From: a virus
Lineage: Duplodnaviria > Caudoviricetes
Virus record (IMG/VR): IMGVR_UViG_3300037961_002553
Coordinates: 4,572 to 68,571 of that record
Length of the DNA: 64,000 nucleotides
Direction: 5' to 3' (one strand)
Positions within the stretch are counted from its first letter, which is position 1; each line of letters starts with the position of its first letter. Below the pieces are notes generated by a model that saw only the letters and a list, made by a program, of their open reading frames with translations, had not been told where the DNA came from and searched no databases. Of this stretch, positions 4,521 to 37,044 are shown piece by piece. Position numbers and translations under genes: made by a program.

Positions 4521-4883
4521 TCACCATTCATCCCTTGGGTTGAAATAAGTGTGCCTTCCCCTATCATCGGAGACAAAAGAGCCGCCCCAACCCATTTCAT
4601 ATGAGCGAGTTCGCATTTCGGCGTTGTCCTCGTCAATTCGGGCTTGAATGTCCTTGTCGGTATAATGGAACGGTTTGTGCTCTGCTGCGTATTCCTTCCA
4701 AATTGGGAGAATCTCGTCCAAGTCGTCCTTTTCCATCATTTCGGAAGAAACATCGGCCTTCTCCCAAAAGGTTTCATAGATGGTATCTTCGCAGAAGAAA
4801 TACCTAACTCCTTCCATGTCCCTCACCCATCGGTTTTCATCGTCTGTTTTCTCAGTCAGCCATTTGTAAAAAGATTTTGCCAT
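4521..4883 (-). CDS. cassette hypothetical protein (120 aa, acidic and aromatic)
   Basis: GGAGG SD; ATACCTTAAT box upstream; 3' trailer CCCCCCTGTGAAGC. Confidence 0.75.
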   Translation of the reverse strand: MAKSFYKWLTEKTDDENRWVRDMEGVRYFFCEDTIYETFWEKADVSSEMMEKDDLDEILPIWKEYAAEHKPFHYTDKDIQARIDEDNAEMRTRSYEMGWGGSFVSDDRGRHTYFNPRDEW

Positions 4884-5080
4884 TTTTCAACCTCCAGCGA
4901 AAAATTGACGGTAGCGGGCGATTAAGGTATTATTTATTCAAAGTAAATAATACCATATGGTTTGAATAAATCAAAGAGCGCAGAATGTTCTTATTTAGCC
5001 ATATTCAAACACGCTGAAACGGGGAGGATTTTCAGCCCCCAAAAATCCGTCAAATTTGACAGGGTGTTTCTCAACTGTGG

Positions 5081-5545
5081 TTATATTAATTCGTATTCAT
5101 ATTCTAATATTCAATATTAGTATTATAGTAAAATAAATCGGTTGTCTCATGGTTGGGAGGGGATGAGACGAGACAACACACGGAAGAATCATCAAGGTTA
5201 TGCAACATAAGTAAAAATATATTTCTATTATCTCATTATCTCATCATCTCATCATCATCATCACTACTACTACACACAACCCCTTATTTTCTTAGGGGTA
5301 TGGAGAGAGAAAGATTCCCCTTTTGTGATGAGACGAGACGAGACAACTATTTTTTGCGTGTTTCCACAAGGTTCTAGGGGGTTGTGTTGCATAACCCCAT
5401 CGTCTCAAGATGAGACAACAGGCGAGACAGTCTCATGCACATGGCAATCAAAGTTATTTCAATGGGCAAACTATTGTTGAAAATAAAATCTATTTGATTC
5501 AACAAACGGATTAATTTATCATTTAAGTTAAAATGTAAAAGTGAA
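5081..5545. repeat. candidate replication origin or terminus: GAGAC/GTCTC iterons and a TCATCA microsatellite flanked by AT-rich tracts
   Basis: GTTGTCTCAT 5141, ATGAGACGAGACAAC 5163, ATGAGACGAGACGAGACAAC 5328, GTCTCAAGATGAGAC 5402, GAGACAGTCTC 5424; no credible ORF. Confidence 0.55.
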
Positions 5546-5622
5546 AAAGGGCCGTAGAAACTAGGGGTGCTTGTGAAAAAGTTAGTGATTCCCTCAAGGG
5601 AGGTGCATTCGGAGGCATTTCT

Positions 5623-5637
5623 GGACTCCTTTATATA
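5623..5637 (+). promoter_or_regulatory. conserved viral promoter GGACTCCTTTATATA (copy 1)
   Basis: Identical 15-mer also at 14280 and 30221; contains an archaeal TATA box. Confidence 0.75.
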
Positions 5638-5687
5638 CCGAAAGGCAACTGTTGAAAATACCCCGCAAAGGGGAAGGAGAGATATAC

Positions 5688-6161
5688 ATGGATGATACCA
5701 CATGGGAAAGCCTCAAAATTGAGGTGAACGAATACCTTGAAGCCGACACCACGCTTGATGCAGGATTGCGTCAAGTCGTTGAATTGAACCTGCAAATCGG
5801 GACGAACAACCCCGATGAGCGAACTGCCGCCGAAGGTGCGCTTAAAGCACTTTTGAAGGGCCGTGATGGAACCCCGTTCCGCCGAGGCCAAAAGAGCGCA
5901 GTTCCAGCCGCAGTTCGTGTTTCAATTGACCGAATCTGTGGAGTTGTTGAAGAAGCCGCAATTGGCTACTACAACCACGATGCAGTTATTGGTGCAATTA
6001 CCATGAAGCACATCAAATCTGGTGGCGGTGCTTACGATGGCGCAGAAGATTACGCTTCTGCCGTTGTGAAGAGAACCCGAAACAACCTTGGCAAGATGTT
6101 CAAGGACGGTTCTTGGGATGGTAGCGTTGATTCCCTTTTAGGCGAATCAAGCGACCTTTGA
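5688..6161 (+). CDS. diverged paralog C of the cassette family
   Basis: PFRRGQKS, HIKSGGGAYD and SWDG align by eye with PAARRGRES, HGRTGGAFD and RWDG; GGAG SD. Confidence 0.8.
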   Translation: MDDTTWESLKIEVNEYLEADTTLDAGLRQVVELNLQIGTNNPDERTAAEGALKALLKGRDGTPFRRGQKSAVPAAVRVSIDRICGVVEEAAIGYYNHDAVIGAITMKHIKSGGGAYDGAEDYASAVVKRTRNNLGKMFKDGSWDGSVDSLLGESSDL

Positions 6162-6209
6162 AGTTAATTCTTCAAACCCGCACAATTCCAGTTCTCTGAA
6201 CTGAACAAC

Positions 6210-6248
6210 GGGGAATAGGGAGCCAAGGCTCCTTATTCTCCCTTTTTT
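6210..6248 (+). terminator. hairpin plus T-tract terminator
   Basis: GGGAATAGGGAGCC-AA-GGCTCCTTATTCTC followed by CCTTTTTT. Confidence 0.65.
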
Positions 6249-6321
6249 CCACAAGGGGAAAGAGAGGGGCTGAGAGGGGCTTTCGGGCCTCACCTCTCTT
6301 TCCCCGCCTTTGGGTGGTTAA

Positions 6322-6579
6322 ATGCGATTAGTAGAAGAAGTCTTTGTTAAGGCTAAAGAGGATTTAATTTGTCAATCCTGCGGTGTTGATATACCGAAGG
6401 ATAGCAACCATCTTCTTGAGTCTTATGTTCATCATGGCGTTATTTCAACTAGTCATTACTGTTTAAACCCAAAGTGCAATCCACCAAATAATGTTCGTTT
6501 GAAGTTATTTTGGGGAACAATAGCCATAGGCGTTTCTCTGTGGCTAATTTACTTTTTCTATCAAAACGCAGGGTTTTAA
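6322..6579 (+). CDS. zinc-finger protein with C-terminal transmembrane (TM) helix
   Basis: CQSC...HYCLNPKC plus a hydrophobic tail. Confidence 0.65.
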   Translation: MRLVEEVFVKAKEDLICQSCGVDIPKDSNHLLESYVHHGVISTSHYCLNPKCNPPNNVRLKLFWGTIAIGVSLWLIYFFYQNAGF

Positions 6580-6586
6580 GTCTATT

Positions 6587-6661
6587 CGCTTAGGCGACCC
6601 GTGGCGGCGTGGCATATACGCCCTCGGCAGGTGGGGGTATGCTTGAACAGTCGCCAAGCGA
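6587..6661 (+). ncRNA. putative structured small RNA
   Basis: Closing stem TCGCTT(A)GGCGAC / GTCGCCAAGCGA with internal hairpins; lies upstream of the tRNAs. Confidence 0.4.
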
Positions 6662-6720: not shown

Positions 6721-6805
6721 GCTGAGATGGCTGAGTTTGGTTAAAAGCGCAGGGCTTAAACTCCTGTCCGTATATGGTTCGCAGGTTCAAATCCTGCTCT
6801 CAGCA
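6721..6805 (+). tRNA. tRNA-Leu (TAA)
   Basis: Acceptor GCTGAGA/TCTCAGC, anticodon loop CTTAAAC, long variable arm, GTTCAAATC T-loop. Confidence 0.92.
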
Positions 6806-6814
6806 TCTTTTCAC

Positions 6815-6889
6815 GGAACGGTAGCACAGTCTGGTTAGTGCGCCAGTCTCATAAACTGGTGGTCGCAAGTTCAAATCTTGCCCGTTCCA
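6815..6889 (+). tRNA. tRNA with CAT anticodon (elongator Met or Ile2)
   Basis: Acceptor GGAACGG/CCGTTCC; anticodon arm CCAGT-CTCATAA-ACTGG; lacks initiator features. Confidence 0.92.
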
Positions 6890-11357: not shown

Positions 11358-12011
11358 TTGAATATCTTTGCACTATCACGAAATCCTGTTGAAGCGGCTC
11401 AACAAATGATTGATAAGCATATTATCAAAATGCCGACTGAAACCTGTCAAATGTTGCATACTAACATTCTTTATATGCAATATGTCAAAGAACACGGTGA
11501 AGAACCTCAATTGAAAGACCTTAAGGCTTTTCACCTCGCCACCGAGTCAAAATTAATGAAGCCAGCCATGCTCAACCACCCCTCAACCATTTGGGCGAGG
11601 CAAACTTATGCTAATTGGAACTGGCTTTATGAACATGGCTTGGCTCTTTGTGATGAATATACTTATCGCTACGAGAAAAAGCATGGGACTCTACAAAGAA
11701 TCCTTGATTGTGTTCCTTACTTTGATGTGGTGTTTGAACACCCTTTTCAAAAGAAGCGACTACAACCTGTTTCAATTGCTATGGACGACCAGTATCGGAT
11801 TTCTAATCCAATGGATATTCCTAACTGGGATTTTGTGATTGAATCATATCGCCACTATTACCTTGAGGGCAAGTGGCGTATTGCTGAATGGCGTAAGAAC
11901 CGCCGACCTGAATGGTTTCCAGCAAACCACTACGCAAAGAAATATAATGTAGGTGTTCGTGCTTACAATGCTCGTAAGCCACGATACCCACAACAACTGA
12001 TGGAGGAATAA
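11358..12011 (+). CDS. pyrimidine-dimer DNA glycosylase / T4 endonuclease V-like protein
   Basis: (M)NIFALSRNPVEAAQQMIDKHIIKMPTETCQML, NHPSTIWAR, LCDEYTYRYEKKH, YRHYY; TTG start. Confidence 0.8.
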   Translation: MNIFALSRNPVEAAQQMIDKHIIKMPTETCQMLHTNILYMQYVKEHGEEPQLKDLKAFHLATESKLMKPAMLNHPSTIWARQTYANWNWLYEHGLALCDEYTYRYEKKHGTLQRILDCVPYFDVVFEHPFQKKRLQPVSIAMDDQYRISNPMDIPNWDFVIESYRHYYLEGKWRIAEWRKNRRPEWFPANHYAKKYNVGVRAYNARKPRYPQQLMEE

Positions 12012-12935: not shown

Positions 12936-13011
12936 GGGCGTATGGTGTAATAGGATAGCATTTTGGCCTTCTAAGCCGAAGATTCGGGTTCAAATCCTGA
13001 TACGCCCGCCA
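12936..13011 (+). tRNA. tRNA-Arg (TCT) with encoded CCA
   Basis: Acceptor GGGCGTA/TACGCCC-G-CCA; anticodon arm TTGGC-CTTCTAA-GCCGA. Confidence 0.93.
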
Positions 13012-14332: not shown

Positions 14333-14539
14333 ATGATTAAGTTGAGAATTATGAACGAAACGGGACACACAGAAGTTGTCCTTGCAGAAAGCGAAGTTAT
14401 TGACCAAATTGACCAGCACCCGACCCATTGGGTGTTTATTGACGGTGAAATGGTTGCTAGAGAATCTATCGGGGAAATTAACTGGGACACCGTTCAATCG
14501 GTGGATTTGACCCCCGCTATTGTTGGAGGAAGTTATTGA
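14333..14539 (+). CDS. ubiquitin-like beta-grasp protein (ThiS/MoaD/SAMP type) precursor ending GG-SY
   Basis: 68 aa; WVFIDGEMV and VDLTPAIVGG match the ThiS/MoaD pattern (V.vNG / V.i.PavaGG). Confidence 0.75.
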   Translation: MIKLRIMNETGHTEVVLAESEVIDQIDQHPTHWVFIDGEMVARESIGEINWDTVQSVDLTPAIVGGSY

Positions 14540-14574
14540 GATTAATTTCTCTTAACTCTTCCAAACCACCATTC

Positions 14575-14619
14575 GGGGGTAGCGTAGGATTTAATCCATC
14601 CTGCGCTATCCCCTTTTTT
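14575..14619 (+). terminator. strong hairpin plus T-tract terminator after the Ubl gene
   Basis: GGGGTAGCGTAGGAT...ATCCTGCGCTATCCCC-TTTTTT. Confidence 0.75.
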
Positions 14620-14621
14620 GG

Positions 14622-15005
14622 GTGATGACACCCGATTTGATAAATTTTATCAACCAAAATGGATTAAAAATAATGCTAGACCTCAAAGGATGGACTTATT
14701 CCTCCGCTATTGAGATAAATGGTTTAGCAGTAGTCAAACCCGACTTTTACCCACCCCGCCATGTCCTCGCTATGGGCAAGAGGGGCTACATTTATTGCGA
14801 CGGGCAGACTCGGATAGATTACGCAGGGCAAGTGTTTTCATCAACAGATGAATTACTCAATACCTGCGGAGAAGAAGCAATTCTTCATTTTAAGGACTGG
14901 GTATTCCTTGAAGAAAAAGAATGGGTGATAACCGATGGTAGTCGTTGGTTAGCCTCATTCTCAAATCTTTCAGAATTACCTAAAAGAAGTAAATATAGGT
15001 GTTAA
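14622..15005 (+). CDS. hypothetical protein
   Basis: 127-aa ORF between the Ubl gene and the RNR gene. Confidence 0.6.
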   Translation: MMTPDLINFINQNGLKIMLDLKGWTYSSAIEINGLAVVKPDFYPPRHVLAMGKRGYIYCDGQTRIDYAGQVFSSTDELLNTCGEEAILHFKDWVFLEEKEWVITDGSRWLASFSNLSELPKRSKYRC

Positions 15006-15007
15006 AT

Positions 15008-16873
15008 ATGACTCAAGCCCCAAACAAAAAGATTTTATCAGATATTACTGTTCACATGAAATATGCAAAATACAACCCAGAATTACTCCGAAGAGAATCG
15101 TGGGATGAAATTGTTGAAAGAAATATGCAAATGCACATCAAAACCTATCCTCAATTAGAAGAGGATATTCGTGATGTTTATACTCACTTTGTCAAAACCA
15201 AGAAAGTTTTGCCTTCCATGCGCTCAATGCAATTTGGTGGTAAGCCAATTGAGATTAGCCCAAACCGTGTCTATAATTGTGCTTATATGCCAATTGATAC
15301 TCACATCGCTTTTAGCGAGGCCATGTTTCTTTTGTTAGGAGGAACAGGTGTTGGATATTCTGTTCAGCGACACCATGTAGAATTAATGTCTGCAATTCAG
15401 CATCCTAATCCAAATCGCCAACGACGATATTTAGTAAATGATTCTATTGAAGGTTGGGCTGATGCAGTAAAGATTCTAATGGAATGTTATACGGGTGTTA
15501 GAACATCTACGCCTACATTTGATTATTCAGACATTAGACCAAAAGGTTCTCTTTTGAAAACTTCTGGTGGAAAAGCGCCAGGCCCACAACCATTGAGAGA
15601 ATGTCTCGTTAAAATTGAAGGTATGCTTCAAAACATTCCTAATGGTTCTATGTTGAAACCAATTCAAGCACACGATATTATGTGTCATATTGCCGATGCT
15701 GTTCTTAGTGGTGGTATTCGTCGTGCGGCTATGATTAGTTTATTTTCAGCAGACGACCATGAAATGATTGCTTGTAAATCTGGTAATTGGTGGGAAAACA
15801 ATCCCCAAAGAGGCAGAGCAAACAATTCAGCAGTTCTTTTGAGACACCGAGTAACAAAAGAATTCTTTATGGATTTGTGGAACAGAATCAAAGCATCTGG
15901 TTCTGGAGAACCTGGAATTTATTTCAATAATGATAAAGACTGGGGAACAAATCCCTGTTGTGAAATTGCACTCCGACCATATCAATTCTGCAATCTAACT
16001 GAGGTTAATGCTTCAGATATTACAGACCAAGCAGATTTAGAGTCAAGAGTTTCTGCCGCCGCTTTCCTCGGAACACTTCAAGCAGGATATACTGATTTCC
16101 ACTATCTTCGTGAAGTTTGGCGTAAAGCAACAGAAAAGGATGCTTTGCTCGGTGTTTCCATGACAGGTATTGCTTCAAATGTTGTTGAACATTTGGATTT
16201 AGAAATGGCCGCTTACGAAGTTAAGAAGGAGAATGAGCGTGTTGCCAAAGAAATCGGTATTAATCCAGCATCAAGAACAACCTGTGTTAAACCTGCTGGA
16301 ACAACTTCTCTTGTGTTAGGCACTTCTTCGGGGATTCATGCTTATCACGATGAGTATTACATTCGCCGTTTGCGTGTTGGTAAGAATGAAGCAATCTATG
16401 GTTATCTCGCAAATAATCATCCCGAATTGGTTGAGGATGAGTTCTTCAACCCGCACGAACAAGCAGTTATTTCAGTTCCTCAAAAAGCACCCGAAGGTGC
16501 AATTACACGCCACGAATCGGTATTTGATTTGTTAGAGCGAGTCAAAAACTTTAGTATTCGTTGGGTTCGTGCAGGGCATAATGATGGACTGAATACCCAC
16601 AATGTTTCCGCCACAATTTCTATTAAAGAAGATGAATGGGAAACAGTAGCCGATTGGATGTGGTTAAACCGACATTACTATAATGGTCTGTCTGTTCTCC
16701 CGTATGACGGAGGCACATATACTCAAGCACCTTTTGAAACCTGTGATAAAGAAACCTATGATAAATTGACCGAAACACTTCAAGATGTTGATTTAACAAT
16801 GGTTCAAGAATTACAAGATGATACAGACCTTTCGGGCGAATTAGCCTGTGCTGGTGGTGCTTGCGAAATCTAA
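15008..16873 (+). CDS. nrdJ: class II (adenosylcobalamin-dependent) ribonucleotide reductase
   Basis: LPSMRSM, YNCAY, GGIRRAA, TNPCCEI, TCVKPAGT, C-terminal CAGGACEI; no beta subunit in the window. Confidence 0.9.
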   Translation: MTQAPNKKILSDITVHMKYAKYNPELLRRESWDEIVERNMQMHIKTYPQLEEDIRDVYTHFVKTKKVLPSMRSMQFGGKPIEISPNRVYNCAYMPIDTHIAFSEAMFLLLGGTGVGYSVQRHHVELMSAIQHPNPNRQRRYLVNDSIEGWADAVKILMECYTGVRTSTPTFDYSDIRPKGSLLKTSGGKAPGPQPLRECLVKIEGMLQNIPNGSMLKPIQAHDIMCHIADAVLSGGIRRAAMISLFSADDHEMIACKSGNWWENNPQRGRANNSAVLLRHRVTKEFFMDLWNRIKASGSGEPGIYFNNDKDWGTNPCCEIALRPYQFCNLTEVNASDITDQADLESRVSAAAFLGTLQAGYTDFHYLREVWRKATEKDALLGVSMTGIASNVVEHLDLEMAAYEVKKENERVAKEIGINPASRTTCVKPAGTTSLVLGTSSGIHAYHDEYYIRRLRVGKNEAIYGYLANNHPELVEDEFFNPHEQAVISVPQKAPEGAITRHESVFDLLERVKNFSIRWVRAGHNDGLNTHNVSATISIKEDEWETVADWMWLNRHYYNGLSVLPYDGGTYTQAPFETCDKETYDKLTETLQDVDLTMVQELQDDTDLSGELACAGGACEI

Positions 16874-16882
16874 GGTGATTAA

Positions 16883-17257
16883 ATGAAACTCTCCAAAATT
16901 TCTAATTTTGAAGAGTATTTAGATGTAATAACAATAATGGCTAGAGATTTATCGGATGAATCTTTACATAGAATAGGTATGGCAATCAATGTCTGTGATT
17001 CTTACATGGATGAGCAGGAAAAAATATATAGGCTAAATACCACTCTCAAAAAATGTCTGTGGGAATATGAAGAAGCAATCAACATGGGCTTTCACAAATT
17101 CATAATCAAACAGACAGGTAAAATTAAAGAATTGCTTAACTACCACCACTATAATTGTGAAGGAGAATCATGCGATGTTTGTAATATATTGAAAGAAACT
17201 AAAATAAAAATGGTGATTAATAATGAAAGAGAAGAACCCGCAATATATTCTCAATAA
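16883..17257 (+). CDS. hypothetical protein
   Basis: GGTGA SD. Confidence 0.6.
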   Translation: MKLSKISNFEEYLDVITIMARDLSDESLHRIGMAINVCDSYMDEQEKIYRLNTTLKKCLWEYEEAINMGFHKFIIKQTGKIKELLNYHHYNCEGESCDVCNILKETKIKMVINNEREEPAIYSQ

Positions 17258-17388
17258 GAGAAGCAACAAACAAATAGCCACACGCTGTCGTGTATGTGGC
17301 GGCAACCTTATGGTTGCCCATGAAATCAAGAACGAAATTCATGACAAATGTGATAATGATGATAAAAATGTATATATGATGTGATACA

Positions 17389-18546
17389 ATGAAACTAAGA
17401 ATTAAAAAACCAGATGATAGTAATGATTATTTTGAAACGAACATTACTTGTGCTACCTATAATTTTAGAGAAGTTATGACGGTTAGTTATCTGCGAAGTG
17501 CTAAAGACCCAATTCAAGCAGGATTGGAAGCCTTTTGGAAAGATATTATTTCTCCTAGAAAATCAAGGAGAACCTATTATAATGGCTTTGGATATAACTT
17601 TCATCATATTGTTTTTATTGAAGGTTGTCCTATCGTTCTTTCAAGAGAAGGCATTCGTTATCAACTGAATGGTAAATCATACAGCCTTGCGACTATTTGT
17701 TCTGCTTTAGCAAGAATTACTTACAAATCATGTTTTGAGAAGAAGCCAGACGCTTTATTGTCTGCTTTGTATGCTACACTTAATTTACCAGAGAATGTCA
17801 AATATTGTATTGAAAATCGTGCGCCATTTCATTTCTTCCAAGACTTTGAGAAGCAAGATGTTCGTTTGAATGTCGTTCAAATTGATGATAAGATGCTCGC
17901 TATGGAAATCAGCGATGGTGTTTGGGGTGAAATAACTCCGAAGCAACTTGACTCTTACTGTAATTTCTATGTTCATGGTAAGCGAAGAGGCTCATGGAAG
18001 TATCTTTCTCCTAAATCCCTATATACTAGGTTGATGGGTCGTGAACCAACGGAGGCTGAATTGAAAGTGATGGTCGCCTTTTTGATGCAGAACAGAATGC
18101 AAGACATTGTGGATGCAAGAGCATTAGAATTAGTGGCTGATATGTTGGTTCAACACAAAGGCCGACTATCTGCTGAATATGACAATGATGGGGTTCTAAC
18201 AAATCTCTTCGTTAGAGGTAAAGATTATGATTGGCAATTGACAAATAATCGCTATAAGTCTGGTATTCAAATGGTTTCAACCTATGTCTGGCAACCAGTC
18301 TTAGAAGTCATTAGAGATGAAGATGATGTTAAAATCATCAAGGAAAAGAAAATGTCCGAACCAGATTGGCGTGGCCCAATTTGTATTGATAATATGGCTG
18401 ATGGCTCTCCATTAGGCGACCAATTCGCCGCAAGAGCGTTAGCCCTTCTTAACGACTCCTTTACAATAACAATAGTGAATACGATTAAGCGGTATCTTGC
18501 CGCCGAACCAAATGAATATAGGATTGATAATGATGATTTGCGATGA
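17389..18546 (+). CDS. putative E2-like (UBC-fold) conjugating protein with a large N-terminal domain
   Basis: C-terminal GPICIDNMADGSP...ALALLND resembles the E2 pattern G.ICLDIL...WSP...LL.D. Confidence 0.5.
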   Translation: MKLRIKKPDDSNDYFETNITCATYNFREVMTVSYLRSAKDPIQAGLEAFWKDIISPRKSRRTYYNGFGYNFHHIVFIEGCPIVLSREGIRYQLNGKSYSLATICSALARITYKSCFEKKPDALLSALYATLNLPENVKYCIENRAPFHFFQDFEKQDVRLNVVQIDDKMLAMEISDGVWGEITPKQLDSYCNFYVHGKRRGSWKYLSPKSLYTRLMGREPTEAELKVMVAFLMQNRMQDIVDARALELVADMLVQHKGRLSAEYDNDGVLTNLFVRGKDYDWQLTNNRYKSGIQMVSTYVWQPVLEVIRDEDDVKIIKEKKMSEPDWRGPICIDNMADGSPLGDQFAARALALLNDSFTITIVNTIKRYLAAEPNEYRIDNDDLR

Positions 18547-19390
18547 ATGTGGTAGCAACAATAACTCATTTGATGAGATACAAGGCGAAAGAATTTGTAA
18601 TGACTGTGGGCTTATCTTAGTCCAAGAGATGTTTGAAGAAACCGTTCACATTTTAGATACGGGCGGGAACCTCAAACATTCTGCTGATAAAGGCAGATTA
18701 GGTTCTGTTATTACAGGTAAAGGTTCTTACAAGTTTAATAAGTTCGGTAAGAATAGCGTAATTCCTCAGCATATTCAAAATGCTCTAATGCATTGTAATA
18801 TGATTTTGGCTCATGTTGCTCCTAATTTGGGATTGAATGAGCGTGTTGAGAAACTGTATCTTGATTTACATAGTAAGGGCGTATTCGGAAGAAGTCAAAT
18901 TGAAGCAAGAGCAACAGCAGTTGTCTTTTATGCTTTGAGAGAGAATGGAACGCCACATACCTTTGCAGAAGTTTCTGCTGAATTTGATGCTAACTTAAAA
19001 TCAGTTAAGAGATTAGTTAGAAAGATTAACCAAGTCTTTAGAAACAAAGCAGGTTATAGTCCTGTTAATCCACAGTATCTTTTAGAGAAAACTCTCAATG
19101 ATATTACCGATGATTTGGTGTTTAGGAGACAAACTATCAAGGTGTTGGAGTTCTTTGAAACAAAGGTAGCGCAAAATACCTTCAACAAGGGAAGGTCATA
19201 TTATGCTTCTATTATTTGGATTTCAGCAAACATGAATGTGAACACATTGATAACTCAAAATCTAATCACAAAGAAAACGGGGTTCTCTCGTTTCAATATT
19301 AGACGACAAACAAAAGCAATTCTATCTATGATTGGTTTAGAACTAGCCAGTCAAGTAAAAGGAAAACAATTAAGCGAACTAGGTGAATAA
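18530..19390 (+). CDS. tfb: transcription initiation factor TFB (TFIIB family)
   Basis: CDECGS...D..QGERICNDCGLI zinc ribbon; GRS...ATAVVFYALR and GRS..ASIIWI cyclin repeats. Confidence 0.88.
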   Translation: MMICDECGSNNNSFDEIQGERICNDCGLILVQEMFEETVHILDTGGNLKHSADKGRLGSVITGKGSYKFNKFGKNSVIPQHIQNALMHCNMILAHVAPNLGLNERVEKLYLDLHSKGVFGRSQIEARATAVVFYALRENGTPHTFAEVSAEFDANLKSVKRLVRKINQVFRNKAGYSPVNPQYLLEKTLNDITDDLVFRRQTIKVLEFFETKVAQNTFNKGRSYYASIIWISANMNVNTLITQNLITKKTGFSRFNIRRQTKAILSMIGLELASQVKGKQLSELGE

Positions 19391-19715
19391 TATGTTTGAA
19401 AAGGAATGGAATAAAATAGCAAAGAAAGTATATAAGAACGCAGTTAATCATGGGTTTTGGAAAGAAACCCCGAATGATGGTGAACGCATGGCTTTGATTC
19501 ATGCTGAAATTAGTGAAGCACTTGAGGCTTTGCGTGATGGAAACCCGTCATCTTCAAAGATTATTGAGTTCAGTAATCTTGAAGAAGAATTAGCCGATGC
19601 AGTAATTCGTATTATGGATTATGCTTTCGGCAAAGATTTAGATATTGCAGGAGCAATTCTAGCAAAAATGGAATATAATGAAAGCCGTGAATTCATGCAT
19701 GGTAAAACATTTTAA
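19383..19715 (+). CDS. MazG-like NTP pyrophosphohydrolase
   Basis: EISEALEA...EEELADAVIR...KMEYNESR. Confidence 0.85.
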   Translation: MNNMFEKEWNKIAKKVYKNAVNHGFWKETPNDGERMALIHAEISEALEALRDGNPSSSKIIEFSNLEEELADAVIRIMDYAFGKDLDIAGAILAKMEYNESREFMHGKTF

Positions 19716-19727
19716 GGAGGAATAAAT

Positions 19728-20285
19728 ATGAGAAAAGTATTAGTAATTGGAGCAGGCGGAATTGGAAGTTTTCTAATTCCTACATTAGATAAAGTTGGTC
19801 TTTACCGCATTCATGTGGCTGACCCCGATGGTGTAGAAACAAAGAATCTACCTTATCAAAACTTTAAGAAAGGCCATGTTGGGCAGAATAAGGCTCAAGT
19901 AATGATGGATTCCTACGAATCTGTTAGTTCTTTCAGTAAATACCCAATTTTAACGGCAAAACAAATGGAGGGCTATGACCTTGTGATTTGTTGCGTTGAT
20001 AACTTGGGCGTGAGGCGAACCTTATACAACACAACCCTTAAATGGCTTGACTTACGAGCGCAAGGCAGAAATGCCGCCCTTGTGTCGCATAAGGCCGACC
20101 CGAAGATGTATGATATGCTCTTAGCAGGTGAAGAAGGTTCATTCAGTTGTCAAGGGGATTCTTGGGATGGAACAAATAGTAATGTTCATTTTATGCAGGT
20201 CGCAATTGCAGGATTAGGCGCACAATGGATTCAAAGATACTTCAATGATGAAGAAGTGAGAGATTATATGGTGGTGAATGTATGA
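19728..20285 (+). CDS. ThiF/MoeB family E1-like adenylyltransferase
   Basis: VIGAGGIGS, DPDGVETKNLPYQ, GQNKA, DLVICCVDN...R; candidate catalytic Cys in FSCQ. Confidence 0.9.
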   Translation: MRKVLVIGAGGIGSFLIPTLDKVGLYRIHVADPDGVETKNLPYQNFKKGHVGQNKAQVMMDSYESVSSFSKYPILTAKQMEGYDLVICCVDNLGVRRTLYNTTLKWLDLRAQGRNAALVSHKADPKMYDMLLAGEEGSFSCQGDSWDGTNSNVHFMQVAIAGLGAQWIQRYFNDEEVRDYMVVNV

Positions 20286-21325
20286 GCAAAAAAAGAAATT
20301 TTTGGACGGATGAACAGTTAGCGTTCCTTGTTGTTTGCAGAACGAAGAAGCAATCATGGGAGCAGATTGCTAACTCTATGCAAGAGAAGTTCGGCTTTTG
20401 GAGAAGTCCCGCTAACATTGGCTCAAAATACCGTAGTCTATTTGATGGCGACCATGCCAAAGAATATACGCCCCAACAATCAAAATTCATTATTGATTGC
20501 TATTTGAATCACTTCCAGACAAAAGTGATTCTTGATGGTTATTTTGAACAGTTTGGTCAAAACATCAAGGAATCAGATATTGATGATGTCGTCAAAAAGC
20601 ATCTAGCGACAGAAAAGAAAGTAGATGCTGAAATCAAAACAATAAAAACAAAAATTAAGGAGAGAAAAAATATGAAGAGAAACGCATGGACAAAAGAAGA
20701 AGATGAGCAATTGCTTGCTTGTGGTTCTTGGAAAGAAGCGATGGAATTGCAGAATGGTCGTTCAAGGACGGCTAAGAACAACCGTTGGGCTTTGCTACAA
20801 AAGCGAAGAAAAGAACAAAAGAAAGGCGCAAAGCGTGGACGAATGACAAAGGCTGAATTAGAAATGATTCGCAATTGTAAAACTGTTGAAGAAGCATTGG
20901 CATTGAATTTGCGAAAGCCCGAAACAATTATTCGGCAATTTACTACTTTCAATTCAAAGAAGAAAGAAGTTGTGCTTGCTGTTGAGCCTAAGCCAAAGAA
21001 GGAGCGTAAGCAATATGCCCCTCGTTGGACGAAAGAAGAGGATTATGACCTAATCTTGAACTTTTACGAACTTTCAATTGACGAAGCCCGAAACCGATTT
21101 AATCGGTCATACGGGGCTATCGCAACCCGCTTAGAAAAGTTGGTTGATAGCACAAAGCCTGAGCATATCTCTATGCTTATGGAGGCTTCTAAGGAAATCA
21201 AGAGTCGCAAGAAGGCACAGAACCCAACGCCCAAAAAGAGCCGCAGAACGCTACGGAAGGAGCGAAAGAAGGCTAAGAAAGAGGCTAAGTTGAAGGCCAA
21301 GTTGCAGAAAATCCGAGGTGAATAA
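20282..21325 (+). CDS. multi-repeat Myb/SANT-like helix-turn-helix protein with Lys-rich tail
   Basis: Repeats WTDEQL, YTPQQS, WTKEEDEQL, MTKAEL, WTKEEDYDL, several followed by RS/RT-type HTH helices. Confidence 0.7.
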   Translation: MSKKRNFWTDEQLAFLVVCRTKKQSWEQIANSMQEKFGFWRSPANIGSKYRSLFDGDHAKEYTPQQSKFIIDCYLNHFQTKVILDGYFEQFGQNIKESDIDDVVKKHLATEKKVDAEIKTIKTKIKERKNMKRNAWTKEEDEQLLACGSWKEAMELQNGRSRTAKNNRWALLQKRRKEQKKGAKRGRMTKAELEMIRNCKTVEEALALNLRKPETIIRQFTTFNSKKKEVVLAVEPKPKKERKQYAPRWTKEEDYDLILNFYELSIDEARNRFNRSYGAIATRLEKLVDSTKPEHISMLMEASKEIKSRKKAQNPTPKKSRRTLRKERKKAKKEAKLKAKLQKIRGE

Positions 21326-21327
21326 AC

Positions 21328-21912
21328 ATGGGAAGAATTAAAGATAAAATGATTAAAGACGGTGATGACGACGATGATGATGGTTATGACCATTATGAGA
21401 TTGAACAAGCAGAATTGGAGTATTTTCGTCAAAAAGCAATTGATGACATTAAGGCTCACTATGAGATTCTTTTGAACGAACAGTTGCGTTCTTGCGTTGG
21501 CCCAAGAGAAAAACTAGAAGGTGTTGCTATGCATTCTTTAGCATTTCATGACACTATTTGGCAAGCATCTACGGAAACTCTTCCTAATCTTGAAGTGCAG
21601 GTTGTAATTGATGGAAAGAACAATTGTTTCGTTTCAACGGGAAGTCCGGGTTTTGTTGATTTCTTTGAGCCTCCAATTGGTATGACTCTTCCTATTCGTT
21701 GTTGGATTCATACTCATCCATTTGGTGCTGCTTATTTTAGTGGAACTGATATTCGGACTGTTTCTATCTGGGAACCAAATATGGAATGTGCATATGTTCT
21801 TGGTGGAACTGGGCATTATGGTTTTTGGGAGAGTCGCTTTGAACCTAAGCAATTAGGAATCTATGTGAACAATGAAGAACATGAAATCCAAACATGGGGT
21901 GAAGAAGAATGA
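21328..21912 (+). CDS. JAB/MPN+ metalloprotease (deubiquitinase-like)
   Basis: Upstream E (LEVQ) and WIHTHPFGAAYFSGTD = HxH-x7-S-x2-D JAMM motif. Confidence 0.88.
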   Translation: MGRIKDKMIKDGDDDDDDGYDHYEIEQAELEYFRQKAIDDIKAHYEILLNEQLRSCVGPREKLEGVAMHSLAFHDTIWQASTETLPNLEVQVVIDGKNNCFVSTGSPGFVDFFEPPIGMTLPIRCWIHTHPFGAAYFSGTDIRTVSIWEPNMECAYVLGGTGHYGFWESRFEPKQLGIYVNNEEHEIQTWGEEE

Positions 21913-22196
21913 GTAAGAGAATTAAAAGCGGTTTAAGCACCGCCGCAAAATATCCAGATAGACCGATGAGAGAAGCCGAAAAAATTTCTTTGAAGAAAAG
22001 AGCCGAGCGACACACAAATGCTCATCCTAATGATAAGAACACGCTAAAGGAAAACAAAGGTGTTCAATGGGCAAAGTCAAGAAAGACTGAGCGAGATAAG
22101 AAATTGAAGCAGTTTTACAAAACTCATGTTTATACTTGGGTTTCCGAAAACCGCCGAGCATGGGTCGCTATTCCTCCAATGGAGGAAGAAGAATGA
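21909..22196 (+). CDS. basic hypothetical protein
   Basis: Coupled ORF. Confidence 0.6.
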   Translation: MSKRIKSGLSTAAKYPDRPMREAEKISLKKRAERHTNAHPNDKNTLKENKGVQWAKSRKTERDKKLKQFYKTHVYTWVSENRRAWVAIPPMEEEE

Positions 22197-22411
22197 AGGC
22201 TTTGGGCAATTATGCAGTAATTAAACTGGAAAATTCAGTATCTGCATCAGGTATTCAGGTTAAAATTGATAGCACAGGTATTGTGCATTCTTGTCCCTCA
22301 ATGCCCGAAGTGGAAGGTAAATTGGTTCTATTTGACGATAGACACCGTTTCGTGACTCACGAAGATATGATAGTTGTTTCTGTTGAACATTTATTGGGAG
22401 TGATTGAATGA
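22193..22411 (+). CDS. groES: GroES-like co-chaperonin
   Basis: MKALGNYAVIK...SASGI...LLGVIE, directly upstream of groEL. Confidence 0.75.
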   Translation: MKALGNYAVIKLENSVSASGIQVKIDSTGIVHSCPSMPEVEGKLVLFDDRHRFVTHEDMIVVSVEHLLGVIE

Positions 22412-24153: not shown

Positions 24154-24552
24154 ATGAAAGAGAAAGCAATTACTGTTGTTTTACCTGCGCCACATAAGCA
24201 AAGGATAAAATGCCCTATCTGTGAAGGAAACAAATGTAAAGTCTGCAATATGTCTGGGGAACTAGGTATTAATGTAGCACCAAAAATTCCGATTCAAAGG
24301 GCGCATATCATCAAATATGTTGCTGAAAATATGCACGAAGTAGCAAAGGAAATTACTCGCAAATATGGTTTAGTGCCTGAAATTAATACGGCTGAAGTGA
24401 TAGAAGTAAATGGAGGACAATTTGAAGTTGTTCAGATTTCTAGTCTTGGCGGTGTTTGTTGGGTTGTGAATCGCTTGGATGATTTAGATACTCCAAGATA
24501 TTTTACATCAAAACAGGAACTTGACAAGTTTAAACAGGGGTGGATGAATTGA
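24154..24552 (+). CDS. zinc-finger protein
   Basis: CPICEGNKCKVCNMSG. Confidence 0.65.
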   Translation: MKEKAITVVLPAPHKQRIKCPICEGNKCKVCNMSGELGINVAPKIPIQRAHIIKYVAENMHEVAKEITRKYGLVPEINTAEVIEVNGGQFEVVQISSLGGVCWVVNRLDDLDTPRYFTSKQELDKFKQGWMN

Positions 24553-24761
24553 CAGATGAATTGGAAGTTAAAGGAACCATAGTCCGTAATGCTGAACTGG
24601 ACTGTAAAATAAAGCGTGGTGTCTATTGGAATATAGAGGTCGTGGATATTCGTTGGTATCGTAATGACAAACCAACGAATAAAGGCATTCGTTTGAATGT
24701 TGATGAAGCAAAATTGTTATTACAAATTTTAAGGAGAGAATTAGATGAAGAGAGTAAGTGA
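24549..24761 (+). CDS. PC4/YdbC-like ssDNA-binding protein or transcription coactivator
   Basis: VDIRWY...PTNKGIRL signature; start codon uncertain. Confidence 0.75.
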   Translation: MTDELEVKGTIVRNAELDCKIKRGVYWNIEVVDIRWYRNDKPTNKGIRLNVDEAKLLLQILRRELDEESK

Positions 24762-33769: not shown

Positions 33770-35437
33770 ATGATAATTAGTAGAATGAATGATGGAAATA
33801 GAATATATAAATCTTGGAGAGAAAACGGAGAAAAGAAACATGAGATTGTTCCCTTTAGACCTTATTTCTATGTTAAGGAAGATAGTGCAGAACCATTTGA
33901 ATATAGACCTTCTAAATATATTAGTCGGGAGTTTGAGTATATTCGTGGCGATTGGGTTAATCTTAACAACGAGCCGTTGAAGAAGGTAATCGTTGAGACT
34001 TCTCACGATATGCGAAAAGCAAAGGATATGTTCGGTGAAACCTATGAAGCCGATGTTCCTTTTCACTTTCGGTATTGTGTTGATGAGTTAGATGAAATGC
34101 CCGAATATAAAATGCGTAAATGGTATTGGGATATGGAATGGCAACAAGGTGGCGATTATCACGACCAATTGACTACAATTGTTGTTTATGATAACTACGA
34201 TGAGAAATACTATCAATGGTCGTGGTTCCCTGAAGATGAATGGATTCCGAACAAACAACTTCAAGCAACCGATAATTATGAAACATATTTTTCTTTTTCA
34301 GAAAGAACAATGATTGAGTCTTTTATGAACGCTATGATTGTAAAAGACCCCGATATGTTAATTGCTTGGTTTGGTCATTTTGCTGATTTACCAAAGTTAT
34401 TTGAACGAGCGTGTGCGGTGGGTCTTGACCCTCGCATTATTTCACCAACGGCAACAGTCAAGGGAGTTAAGTCTGTAAAAGACGGCTATGAGTTCAAATA
34501 TTCGGAGAAAGGTTTTTCTCCAATTGAACAACCTATTGGTGGGCGAATTACACTTTCTTTGGACTTAGCATTTGAAAGACAATGGAATGATTCTCAAAGA
34601 GGAACATTACCCTCGCTTTCTCTTGATTATATCGGTGAAACAGTTCTTGATAAAAAGAAGTTGGTATCGGAAAAGTTTCCAGACACCAATGAATTTTATC
34701 GCAGGGCTTGGTTAGAAGATACACAAACATACCTCAAATATGCTTTGAGAGATGTTGAATTGATGGTTGAGATTGACGAAACTAATTTTTGTAGTGAAGC
34801 AATTCTTTCTCTTCAACGATTACTGAAAGCACCATTTGATGCTTGTTTTTATGCAAGTCATATGGGTTCTATCTACTTTATGCGAAACGCTTGGTGGAAA
34901 GCACCAACGGGTAGTAAAGTGGATAAAAGAGAAGAATATGAAGGGGCTATGATTTACGACCCATTAAGTGAAGGAACAAACGGATTACATTTAAATGTAG
35001 CCGCCTTTGATTTTGCTGGTCTATACCCTTCAATGATGATTGCTCGCAATATCAGTTGGGAAACTAAATCAGTAGAGCCGACTGAATTTGCAGTTAATAT
35101 TCTTACTCCGAGAGACTTTAGCGAAACAAAACATGAGCAGATGCTCTATTACAAAACGGATAAACTCGGCTTACTACCAAGAGCCGTCCTTGAATTGAAG
35201 GAGTTGCGAAATGAATATAAACGACTGATGCGAGAGGCAAGAGAAACGGACAATGGCGAGTATGCGAAGTGGTATAACAATCAAATGGCAGTTAAGCGTC
35301 TAATGGCTTCTTTTTATGGCATTGTTGCCTTTCAAGGATTTGGTTGGGCTGATGTTGATTTGGCGGCATCTATTACTGCAAGTGCAAGAGAAGCAATTAG
35401 ATTAGCGGCGTTTGCTGCAAAGGAGATGGAAGCATGA
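33770..35437 (+). CDS. polB: family B DNA polymerase, N-terminal part (exonuclease plus motifs A and B)
   Basis: FRPYFY, YEADV, WDME, FDFAGLYPSMM, QMAVKRLMASFYG; ends at ITASAREAI before motif C. Confidence 0.93.
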   Translation: MIISRMNDGNRIYKSWRENGEKKHEIVPFRPYFYVKEDSAEPFEYRPSKYISREFEYIRGDWVNLNNEPLKKVIVETSHDMRKAKDMFGETYEADVPFHFRYCVDELDEMPEYKMRKWYWDMEWQQGGDYHDQLTTIVVYDNYDEKYYQWSWFPEDEWIPNKQLQATDNYETYFSFSERTMIESFMNAMIVKDPDMLIAWFGHFADLPKLFERACAVGLDPRIISPTATVKGVKSVKDGYEFKYSEKGFSPIEQPIGGRITLSLDLAFERQWNDSQRGTLPSLSLDYIGETVLDKKKLVSEKFPDTNEFYRRAWLEDTQTYLKYALRDVELMVEIDETNFCSEAILSLQRLLKAPFDACFYASHMGSIYFMRNAWWKAPTGSKVDKREEYEGAMIYDPLSEGTNGLHLNVAAFDFAGLYPSMMIARNISWETKSVEPTEFAVNILTPRDFSETKHEQMLYYKTDKLGLLPRAVLELKELRNEYKRLMREARETDNGEYAKWYNNQMAVKRLMASFYGIVAFQGFGWADVDLAASITASAREAIRLAAFAAKEMEA

Positions 35438-35928: not shown

Positions 35929-36146
35929 CCGATGATAGAGTATATTTAGAAACACTAAAAGAAATTAAAAACATGAAAGAACAAATGCATAAAGAAATTT
36001 CTAGAATGAAGGCGGAAATGGATATTATGTATATTGAATTACAAAGAGCAAAACAAGAAATTGGTGCTATTCGTGAAATACAAGAAGAAGTAGCAAAATT
36101 AGCAGGTGTTCCTGTTGGAATGCTATTTACAAATTACCGAGCGTGA
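35925..36146 (+). CDS. coiled-coil hypothetical protein
   Basis: ATGA overlap; heptad pattern. Confidence 0.6.
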   Translation: MTDDRVYLETLKEIKNMKEQMHKEISRMKAEMDIMYIELQRAKQEIGAIREIQEEVAKLAGVPVGMLFTNYRA

Positions 36147-36150
36147 TAAC

Positions 36151-37044
36151 TTGAAAGTAGTTTATGGACATACAGATTCTATCTATGTGCAGATAGATTC
36201 GGTGGAGCAAGCACAAAAATCAATTAAAGAGATTGAGGCAAAAGTGCGAGAACATTTTCCTAATGTGATGGGATTAGATAATCATCCCGTTGTTCTTGAA
36301 TTTGAAAAGTATTATTCAGCATTGGGTGTTGGAACAACCAAAAACAGAAACGCAGGATTAGTGTCTTGGGAAGATGGAGAATGGTTAGAAAAACCAAAGT
36401 TCAGTATGACTGGATTTACGGCGAAGCGTGTTAGCGAAACAAAATTAGCGAAAGAAGTGCAAACAAATGCTCTCAAAATGTGGGTAGAACAAAAGACCTA
36501 TCCTGAAATTACCAAGTATTTGTATGAAACATTTAAATCTGTGAATGAAGGGGATATTCCAATCTCTTCCATTATCAAAAGAAGCCGTCTAAGGCAAAAC
36601 CGTTTCACAGTAAAATGCCCCGAATGCAAGACACAATATCATTTGCGTGATTGTATTCATCTAAAGCATAAAGTTTGTGAAAAGTGCGCTACACCAACGA
36701 AGCAATTTACCACTCTTGAAGGAAAGAAGCCGACGATTGGTTCGGGTATTGCTGGTGTTTTGTATGCTTGGGAAAAGAAAAAGGCTAATTTTGATGACTC
36801 TTATCTCTTCTTAAAAGTAAAGAGAGTAAATGATTTCTATACGCATCCTTTAACGCAAGAAAGGCGAGAAGTGGAATACTTATCAGGCATAACCTACGAG
36901 GATTTCAAGGGTTGTAGTCCCGATTGGGGCTTCTATTCGCAACAGGTTATCAAGAAGGCGGAACCCATTTTCAAGGCTATGGGATGGGACACAACGGCCA
37001 TACGCACAGGAAAAATACAGTCAAGCCTTGACGAATGGTGGTGA
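36151..37044 (+). CDS. polB: family B DNA polymerase, C-terminal part (motif C and thumb) with a Zn-ribbon insertion
   Basis: VVYGHTDSIYV, LEFEK, KNRNAG, CPEC...CEKC; C-terminal PIP-like QSSLDEWW; TTG start. Confidence 0.88.
   Translation: MKVVYGHTDSIYVQIDSVEQAQKSIKEIEAKVREHFPNVMGLDNHPVVLEFEKYYSALGVGTTKNRNAGLVSWEDGEWLEKPKFSMTGFTAKRVSETKLAKEVQTNALKMWVEQKTYPEITKYLYETFKSVNEGDIPISSIIKRSRLRQNRFTVKCPECKTQYHLRDCIHLKHKVCEKCATPTKQFTTLEGKKPTIGSGIAGVLYAWEKKKANFDDSYLFLKVKRVNDFYTHPLTQERREVEYLSGITYEDFKGCSPDWGFYSQQVIKKAEPIFKAMGWDTTAIRTGKIQSSLDEWW

Follow-up and report, generated by a model that had tools for sequence, protein, structure and literature searches.

We describe a conserved set of genes in a 64-kb stretch of DNA (hereafter the window) from the 68.6-kb IMG/VR viral record IMGVR_UViG_3300037961_002553, the completeness of which is estimated at 74%, and propose that this virus probably encodes its own ubiquitin-like protein-tagging module. 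The set comprises a ubiquitin-like protein (Ubl) of 68 amino acids, here called Ubl68; a 185-amino-acid E1-like enzyme, ThiF185; a 194-amino-acid JAMM protease, JAB194; and a 385-amino-acid candidate E2, p385. An initial annotation of this DNA had interpreted the four genes as a conjugation cascade. The four open reading frames (ORFs) and their motifs are borne out by the ORF list, all on the + strand, and, judged at the level of sequence, the gene and motif features are much too marked to be due to chance. Of the assignments made in that interpretation, three (Ubl, E1 and JAMM) hold; the fourth, the E2, which has no sequence family behind it and structural Z values of 4–6.1, is weakly supported. 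It is highly likely that the Ubl, the E1 and the JAMM protease work together as a virus-encoded module. On balance we favour protein conjugation, and not sulfur transfer only, as its output, tagging being the likeliest function.

The case is carried by motifs, predicted folds, strong conservation and a fixed gene order. Ubl68 (positions 14333–14539 of the window, + strand) consists of a beta-grasp core (residues 1–61), an invariant AIVGG (residues 62–66) and a dispensable two-residue tail, SY; its C-terminal sequence is VDLTPAIVGGSY. We found 313 homologues at E ≤ 0.01. Among the 120 listed, the motif A(I/V)VGG is kept in 119 and is replaced by VRG in the remaining one; the GG is followed by no residue in 21, by one in 2 and by two in 96, and the 96 two-residue tails include 22 different dipeptides. 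Because the GG is invariant while the tail is short, freely varying and dispensable, the tail looks like a part that is removed from a precursor. With a mean column identity of 79%, the Ubl68 alignment is the most conserved of the block. The AlphaFold model, made from a 27-sequence alignment (predicted local distance difference test (pLDDT) 85.6; residues 65–68 disordered), has the order strand, strand, helix, strand, strand, short helix, strand, which is the beta-grasp topology, and the identification of this protein as a Ubl in the initial annotation thus stood up in both predicted fold and terminal GG. All 50 Foldseek matches listed for the model are ubiquitin, ISG15, NEDD8, SUMO, other Ubl-domain proteins or MoaD (best E = 0.015). 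The VIA structure search returned MoaD (Z = 5.4), bacterial BilA (5.3), ISG15 (5.2), MOCS2A (5.1) and SUMO1 (5.0), with ThiS, SAMP1 (4.2) and a Caldiarchaeum ubiquitin in lower rows, all within Z = 4.2–5.4. The highest identities to structural matches are 20–21%, for MoaD and CysO. Going by the predicted structure, Ubl68 is a beta-grasp ubiquitin-like modifier, its subfamily aside.

ThiF185 (19728–20285, + strand) matches the Pfam family ThiF (PF00899) over residues 3–141, well above the cut-off (E = 1.2 × 10−16; 61.1 bits versus 28.1), and its homologues form 700 clusters (90% identity) at E ≤ 1 × 10−5. The nucleotide loop, VIGAGGIGS, contains GAGGIG at residues 8–13, of which G8, G10, G11 and G13 are invariant in an alignment of 31 sequences, as are D32, K39, K55, D91-N92, R96 and C141. 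The last of these, the candidate cysteine of the initial annotation, lies in SFSCQGD, 50 residues past the DN motif, a spacing that we take to be about that of the loop cysteine in MoeB, ThiF and UBA5. The mean column identity of 76% is second in the block after that of Ubl68. Sequence matches in the PDB are SAE2, Cap2, UBA3, UBA5, MccB, TcdA, MoeB and ThiF, and the glycine-rich loop, the lysine and the DN motif align with their equivalents in Cap2 and other E1s. PADLOC matches ThiF185 to 31 'E1-E2' models of the Cap2 type, in the E1 part only (best E = 1.9 × 10−9), and the top NCBIfam matches are ThiS and ThiF adenylyltransferase models (best 48.4 bits versus a cut-off of 159). By its sequence, ThiF185 is a real, if unusual and minimal, member of the ThiF/E1 superfamily. 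Complex prediction for ThiF185 with residues 1–66 of Ubl68, a pairing for which the initial annotation had called, gave a score of 0.47, compared with 0.02 for the best control, with contact agreement between runs of at least 92% and partner pLDDT of at least 82.

JAB194 (21328–21912, + strand) is a JAMM/MPN+ metalloprotease by its motif: it contains HTHPFGAAYFSGTD, an exact HxHx7Sx2D, and E89, H128, H130, S138 and D141 are invariant in an alignment of 36 sequences in which overall identity falls as low as 42%. Its initial identification as a JAMM-motif protease is thereby upheld; read from the sequence, it is a JAMM enzyme with an intact motif. When the family profile was compared with the PDB, the 12 best matches were AMSH-LP, AMSH and Sst2 (AMSH-LP, E = 0.0034, motif region only), and the next rows were Rpn11-type chains, one coatomer row aside. 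The nearest structures are deubiquitinases, which we count as support for a Ubl-linked protease. One fragment in the 90% cluster of JAB194 is labelled 'proteasome lid subunit RPN8/RPN11' by JGI.

To establish how consistently these genes occur together, we used two overlapping sets of loci: 62 from a ThiF-anchored search of IMG/VR, and 80 kept of 333 related stretches from a JAB-anchored search, which shares contigs with the former. Every locus that reaches far enough, in both sets, holds to the order p82, Ubl, (p127), (RNR), p124, p53, p385, TFB, (MazG), ThiF, (Myb-like), JAB, ..., GroEL, where RNR is a ribonucleotide reductase and TFB a viral TFIIB homologue. The block genes are present in the ThiF-anchored loci wherever the contig reaches. 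Of the JAB-anchored loci, 76 contain ThiF, 63 p385 and 55 Ubl, and where one of these is missing the contig always ends within 6.3 kb (≤ 6.3 kb) upstream of the JAB gene; RNR (29/80), MazG (33/80) and p127 (32/80) are variable members. Compact genomes, such as that at locus L138, have Ubl, p124, p53, p385, TFB, ThiF and JAB as seven contiguous genes. The four genes of the proposed module thus lie together in every related contig that extends far enough, and this shows their joint long-term retention while p385 and JAB diverged to ~40% identity. The three points on which the initial annotation had staked its reading all came out in its favour: the beta-grasp fold is predicted, the GG is conserved and the genes co-occur. 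Loci in which the Ubl already ends at GG (7 of 43 in the ThiF-anchored set and 10 of 55 in the JAB-anchored set) all retain the JAMM gene, ThiF and p385; as the protease gene is kept where there is no tail, tail trimming cannot be the sole job of JAB194.

The candidate E2, p385 (17389–18546, + strand), is an orphan protein, and the features that suggest an E2 are in its C-terminal domain (residues ~236–385; 18094–18546). Cys332 lies in W.GPICIDN, which is followed by GDQ..R.....ND. The cysteine is invariant in 34 aligned sequences, and all 132 aligned cluster representatives (clusters at 50% identity) have it; in these, D344, Q345, R349, N355 and D356 are each conserved at 99–100%. The model of p385 is multi-domain (pLDDT 84.1; predicted template modelling score 0.51). 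A wide VIA search, which is independent of Foldseek, aligned the C-terminal domain of this model to FANCL (Z = 6.1; root-mean-square deviation (r.m.s.d.) 3.0 Å over 85 residues), E2S (Z = 5.5; 4.0 Å over 111 residues), Ubc9 (Z = 5.4) and UBE2F (Z = 5.0). By title, 40 of the 50 rows listed are E2, UEV, RWD or FANCL, including viral E2 and bacterial CBASS E2, and the UBC/RWD rows range over Z = 3.9–6.1, r.m.s.d. 3.0–6.0 Å and 85–123 residues; below Z = 8 the tool cautions that a match can be merely a common arrangement. In order, the domain has one long helix, four strands and a variable insertion that forms a hairpin, after which come the cysteine and three helices, and in the model C332 falls after the strands, 10 residues ahead of helix 342–354. 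E2s carry their catalytic cysteine between the fourth strand and the following helix, and read against this topology the modelled C332 appears to sit at a fitting place. We consider the UBC match to be above noise because the list of matches is consistent, covers nearly the whole domain and comes with an order of secondary structure that places C332 suitably.

The family to which this domain belongs is narrow: its profile finds 154 clusters among 1.84 billion representatives, nearly all of them proteins of 370–480 amino acids with the domain at the C terminus, and none links to an E2 family. Neither among 34 homologues of p385 nor among 60 distant representatives did we find a shared Pfam family (UQ_con and Prok-E2 included). 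UQ_con was also negative in the viral record itself, a result that carries no weight because the control genomes were negative too. Four further leads were set aside: the sole PDB sequence match of the p385 profiles, CorA at E = 1.4, was counted as nothing; a Cna_B repeat protein among the matches of the C-terminal profile was taken as spurious; ESM Atlas scores (≤ 0.78) were uninformative; and Foldseek against BFVD returned only three unnamed homologues. A loose structural likeness has a precedent in the bacterial E2 BilB, which, in the portion of the report on which we draw, resembles eukaryotic E2s with an r.m.s.d. of 3.2–3.4 Å over 93–99 residues (PMC10557695), a looseness comparable to that of the p385 fold match. 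Of the E2-like protein in the initial annotation, the cysteine motif stands, whereas the E2-like label is a matter of interpretation; that p385 is the E2 of the module is plausible at somewhat less than even chances.

If these proteins act together as we propose, Ubl68 would be made with zero to two extra residues past its invariant Gly-Gly, and JAB194 would trim them and later strip the tag off its targets. ThiF185 would bind ATP and adenylate Gly66 of Ubl68, possibly going on to form a thioester on the invariant Cys141. The tag would then pass to lysines of host or viral proteins, perhaps directly, as in archaeal sampylation, or alternatively by way of p385, a divergent E2 on this view, through Cys332 of its UBC-like C-terminal domain; the N-terminal two-thirds of the protein would then serve to bind the E1 or substrates. 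The purpose put forward in the initial annotation, to modify host or viral proteins or to counter host Ubl defence, may apply. Each chemical step, the targets and the role of the E2 are what we infer from the features above.

Several observations weigh against this reading or parts of it. The structural matches of Ubl68 are modest (Z up to 5.4) and tied, such that ubiquitin-like and MoaD-like proteins are not separable, and the protein is without a match in Pfam, PHROG, NCBIfam or PADLOC (the ThiS, MoaD, ubiquitin and Urm1 families included). For JAB194, the Prok-JAB score in Pfam is below the cut-off (20.2 bits versus 25; E = 5.8 × 10−4). All NCBIfam matches of ThiF185 are far under their cut-offs, including those to the SAMP E1 model (29.7 versus 450 bits) and the PRTRC ThiF model (40.7 versus 144.75 bits). 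Three features also set ThiF185 apart. It has an invariant Tyr43 (NLPYQ) where the canonical NLxRQ has an arginine, the aligned column in PDB chains being the arginine of NLNRQ and NLSRH (in Cap2 and another ThiF-type protein). It begins only two residues ahead of the first, nucleotide-binding strand, and therefore has no room for an N-terminal arginine finger such as that of MoeB. Its sequence and alignment contain no CxxC zinc motifs. Because all three are lacking, the chemistry of ThiF185 may differ from that of canonical enzymes; the invariant K39 or another residue may conceivably stand in for the missing arginine. The complex of ThiF185 with Ubl68 was graded only 'weak'. In the benchmark, 58 of 80 solved complexes and 2 of 110 mismatched pairs scored that high, but scores of 0.60 or lower were held by only 7 of the 80 solved complexes and by both passing mismatches; moreover, E1–Ubl complexes have already been solved, and the pass may reflect likeness to them.

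The E2 assignment faces objections of its own: the match of the modelled C-terminal domain of p385 to the UBC/RWD fold is weak; no HPN motif is conserved, the corresponding stretch, YVWQP, being variable in the 34-sequence alignment; p385 has no match in Pfam, PHROGs, PADLOC or NCBIfam; and Foldseek against the PDB gave unrelated rows (best E = 0.068). As for gene order, the four genes are interspersed with unrelated ones (RNR, TFB, MazG and Myb-like), and their co-occurrence is not independent proof of a functional link because all of the loci belong to one syntenic viral lineage.

A different output for the same proteins is suggested by prokaryotic triads of ThiS/MoaD-like, JAB and E1 proteins, which, in the part of the survey used here, are classically linked to sulfur assimilation (PMC1779556). 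ThiF185 would then adenylate Ubl68 for conversion to a C-terminal thiocarboxylate that serves as the sulfur donor for a cofactor, for a base of tRNA or DNA, or for a small molecule; the part of JAB194 would be limited to trimming, a task that JAMM enzymes perform on certain sulfur carriers of bacteria; and p385 would be unrelated. One such carrier is QbsE, from which the JAMM enzyme QbsD cuts two residues that follow the GG. Such a role would suit the best-identity matches of Ubl68 (MoaD and CysO), the ThiS and ThiF adenylyltransferase models that head the NCBIfam matches of ThiF185, and the fact that no E2 is detectable by sequence. Against this, when 100 ORFs of the window were compared with Pfam (16 at E ≤ 0.1; 27 and 57 at E ≤ 0.001), neither acceptor nor relay enzyme appeared among them: MoaE, ThiG or ThiH, PP-loop thiolase, rhodanese and cysteine desulfurase were all absent, which bears out the remark in the initial annotation that genes for thiamine, molybdopterin and tRNA thiolation are not visible. 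Nor does the 68.6-kb record as a whole contain PAPS_reduct, the same search being positive in 14 of 14 control genomes. Sulfur partners could still exist, given that the record is ~74% complete and that host enzymes could serve. The retention of the JAMM gene where trimming is unneeded and the co-conserved UBC-like protein with its invariant cysteine in the block also count against a sulfur carrier. We regard this role, which the initial annotation had called unsupported, as the less likely one and keep it as an unlikely rival to protein tagging.

Two further explanations dispense with a working cascade. The viral JAMM enzyme could strip host SAMP-type or defence conjugates, with the Ubl and the E1 acting as decoys, competitors or inhibitors. 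Borg elements of archaea have many JAMM 'deSAMPylases' that are thought to remove host SAMP (as described in part of PMC12660748), bacterial Ubl systems act against phages (in part of PMC10557695), and the lack of a canonical catalytic arginine in ThiF185 would fit a non-productive binder. We nevertheless consider such interference improbable: the Ubl GG, the loop, lysine, aspartate and cysteine of ThiF185 and the JAMM site do not vary among homologues with identities as low as ~40–70%, which argues for active enzymes with a cognate substrate, and a decoy does not need a trimmed, variable tail. It is also conceivable that there is no system at all, the ThiF-like enzyme adenylating some other substrate (a peptide, a nucleotide or a tRNA base; MccB and TcdA, both among the PDB matches of ThiF185, are enzymes to compare), the JAMM protein being a general peptidase, the GG protein being unrelated and the linkage reflecting the synteny of a replication-module block. 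The interspersed RNR, TFB, MazG and Myb-like genes and the restriction of co-occurrence to one lineage are compatible with this, as are the adjacent JAMM-motif and ThiF-like genes of crAss-like phages, near which a conserved GG protein was not found. However, a beta-grasp protein with an invariant GG at its free end, an E1-family protein and a JAMM protein are the three defining partners of Ubl systems, and their presence in one block would have to be a coincidence; the ThiF185–Ubl68 prediction, weakly positive at 0.47 versus 0.02 for controls, also speaks against it. Of the explanations weighed here we find this one the hardest to credit.

Compared with known systems, the module appears nearest in architecture to bacterial Bil and nearest in biological setting to archaeal sampylation. 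Bil (BilABCD), like the viral set, has separate genes for Ubl, E2, JAB protease and E1, although here the E2 is only a candidate. The Bil Ubl likewise has one or more residues past the reactive glycine, which the Bil deubiquitinase removes before activation (in the part of PMC10557695 used here), and BilA is matched by the Ubl68 model (Z = 5.3). Bil, however, is encoded by the host and acts against phages (same part of PMC10557695), whereas this module is encoded by a virus. The Bil E1, as the same source describes it in part, has inactive and active adenylation domains, a mobile cysteine domain and a zinc site, whereas ThiF185 is a single domain of 185 amino acids without zinc motifs; p385 has no PADLOC similarity of any kind and lacks the CEHH motif of BilB, and the genes do not form one tight operon. 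Sampylation (SAMP, UbaA and HvJAMM1) shares with the viral set its setting in archaeal cells and its parts, namely a small modifier of beta-grasp fold that ends in GG, an E1-like enzyme of a single domain and a JAMM protease (PMC4443979 and PMC4895103, each in part), and SAMP1 is among the structural matches of Ubl68 (Z = 4.2). Unlike the viral set, with its possible E2, it needs no E2; ThiF185 is much shorter than its E1, scoring 29.7 bits against the 450-bit cut-off for SAMP E1, and the set here is virus-encoded. In type II CBASS, the E1 part of Cap2 is matched by ThiF185 (PADLOC and PDB) and there is a JAB protease partner, Cap3, but Cap2 is an E2–E1 fusion that conjugates the CD-NTase, and here there is neither a fusion nor a match to the E2 half. 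No nucleotidyltransferase or effector was found among the 100 window ORFs with Pfam. With the models for Bil, Cap2/Cap3 and Bub, PADLOC matched ThiF185 alone; the seven other proteins submitted had no match.

The clusters of ThiS/MoaD sulfur carriers resemble the viral set in that a beta-grasp protein with a GG occurs together with a ThiF/MoeB-like enzyme and a JAB protein (PMC1779556, in part), and MoaD is the top VIA row for Ubl68; those clusters contain genes for sulfate or sulfite assimilation or for cofactors (same source, in part), none of which was found here. Viruses of prokaryotes have parts of such systems too. TAPI and TAPK of lambda and T1 place a Ubl with a conserved terminal glycine beside a JAB peptidase, but, in the account given in part of PMC1779556, they belong to the tail module, are fused to other domains and come with no E1 or E2, whereas the genes described here are in the replication and early block, and the tail genes of this virus are on the other strand. 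Asgard 'Nidhogg' viruses and Borgs are archaeal viruses or elements with single parts of Ubl pathways: the E1-like proteins of Nidhogg have been proposed to harness the host Ubl system (bioRxiv 10.1101/2021.07.29.454249, in part), and the account of Borgs centres on their JAMM proteases, one having its own SAMP (PMC12660748, in part). The sections of the Nidhogg and Borg descriptions on which we draw report no single virus with a Ubl, an E1, a JAMM protease and a candidate E2 together, and the terms JAB, ThiF, E1-like and Ubl are absent from the main text of a survey of jumbo phages (PMC7824862).

A related system may exist in viruses of bacteria. In the phage collection, ThiF185 has relatives only among the ThiF-like genes of two groups: crAss-like Bacteroides phages, and some phages of Xanthomonas, Erwinia and Vibrio. 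The ThiF-like protein of Bacteroides phage DAC15 has 28.6% identity to ThiF185 over 97% of the query and also lacks the NLxRQ arginine (NLSGQ). In DAC15 (4551–5648 and 5650–6660, locus L144) and in bajarodcaudo virus 1 (4598–5803 and 5800–6654, locus L145), the gene directly upstream of the ThiF-like gene encodes an HxHx7Sx2D motif (Prok-JAB E = 6.5 × 10−5 for that of DAC15), and the pair lies in the replication module. GenBank names these genes 'hypothetical protein', 'thiamine biosynthesis protein' or 'E1 enzyme family protein'. A conserved GG protein was not found near the pair in either genome. DAC15 gene 83, which ends in AIIGGYED, was rejected as a Ubl: its homologue in bajarodcaudo virus 1 is without the GG, and hhalign aligned only 6 columns. 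A 394-amino-acid neighbour in DAC15 was likewise discarded as a relative of p385 (hhalign probability 0.2).

The virus itself, a tailed virus of marine archaea, appears to be magrovirus-like. Published group B magroviruses have RNR, GroEL, tRNA-Leu and tRNA-Arg, and a near-complete replication apparatus (PMC5434244, in part), and on our comparison the gene content of the window fits that description. Three tRNA genes, for Leu (TAA), Met (CAT) and Arg (TCT), lie at 6721–6889 and 12936–13011. The replication and early-gene block extends on the + strand from ~7 kb to 42 kb of the window and encodes a UvrD-like helicase, a class II RNR, the TFIIB homologue, MazG, GroEL, an ATP-dependent DNA ligase, an RFC-like clamp loader, a split family-B polymerase, a Cas4-like nuclease and an ERCC4 nuclease; large structural genes, including that for the tail-tube protein, occupy the – strand beyond 42.9 kb. 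The polymerase is divided between two ORFs (33770–35437 and 36106–37044), which correspond to positions 37–194 and 217–369 of the Pfam family DNA_pol_B and are separated by ~670 bases with small ORFs. A 73-amino-acid protein (24540–24761) has a sub-threshold match to PC4, the transcriptional coactivator p15, which binds single-stranded DNA (E = 4.6 × 10−5; 23.3 bits versus a cut-off of 25). The small ORF p91 (22136–22411), just upstream of GroEL, was tried as a GroES on the strength of a resemblance and was dropped, having no Pfam or PDB sequence match. In part of PMC5434244, the phages with chaperonins cited there are said to encode no GroES, and magroviruses are likely the same.

Many + strand proteins end in EE, EEE or EEEE (gene ends at 12011, 12253, 13739, 14167, 21912, 22196, 23931 and 25366), and most of the 20-base stretches ahead of the next start codon of these genes contain a ribosome-binding site similar to GGAGG or GGTGA. 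It thus appears that the acidic tails arise as a side effect of Shine–Dalgarno sequences embedded in the 3′ end of the upstream gene.

Among the neighbours of the module, p124 (16883–17257, + strand; 124 amino acids) is a conserved protein whose gene falls between those for the Ubl and p385 in every relative covered; it has no Pfam family above the cut-off, and its alignment shows a C-terminal cluster, YH..NC....C..C. The 53-amino-acid p53 (17223–17384, + strand) is always directly upstream of p385, and its invariant C22, C25, H40 and C43 (32 sequences) form a zinc-knuckle-like CxxC...HxxC pattern. Just downstream of the Ubl gene in those JAB-anchored loci that have it, and not in all relatives, p127 (14622–15005) has a conserved C-terminal K(Y/F)RC with a nearly invariant terminal cysteine and no family match. 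The TFB (18497–19390) has a zinc ribbon and a weak cyclin-repeat match and stands between p385 and ThiF in the conserved block of all relatives; a functional link to the module would be pure speculation. Contigs from the metatranscriptomes of two studies are 90–96% relatives over Ubl, p385–TFB, ThiF and JAB; we did not take these RNA-library contigs as expression because DNA carry-over is possible, and no meaning attaches to the stretches that they leave uncovered.

Ubl conjugation is known from eukaryotes, from archaea (SAMPs) and, recently, from bacterial defence against phages, and the viruses of prokaryotes have so far offered only fragments of it: tail-assembly Ubl and JAB proteins, lone E1-like genes and JAMM proteases. 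The words 'ThiF', 'JAB' and 'ubiquitin' are absent from the main texts of the magrovirus papers searched, the supplementary gene tables of which may list such domains, and in public annotation the genes described here go under 'hypothetical protein' or under the erroneous label 'D-arabinose 1-dehydrogenase-like Zn-dependent alcohol dehydrogenase'. In the present case it is the virus itself that has a conserved Ubl, an E1, a JAMM protease and a candidate E2, and its lineage is abundant in marine metagenomes (700 ThiF clusters). A bolder proposal, which we advance tentatively and with the odds against it, is that group B-like magroviruses and their relatives run a self-contained Ubl cascade, by which host or viral proteins would be retargeted in the early phase of infection. 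Host factors might, for example, be directed to the archaeal proteasome, or the transcription machinery might be modified, given the viral TFB in the block. The parts of the cascade, taken jointly at that same tentative level, would be a 66-residue modifier, the smallest known E1 (185 amino acids, with neither the canonical arginine nor a zinc site), a new E2 family and a JAMM protease, and p385 would represent this previously unseen E2 family embedded in a three-domain protein. These viruses are among the most abundant archaeal viruses of the surface ocean, and if the proposal is true, they would be the first viruses of prokaryotes in which a Ubl conjugation pathway is encoded in full. If active, the module would provide a very small E1–Ubl pair for mechanistic work and a new E2-like family, and it would reverse the usual picture, as it would be the virus, and not the host, that does the tagging.

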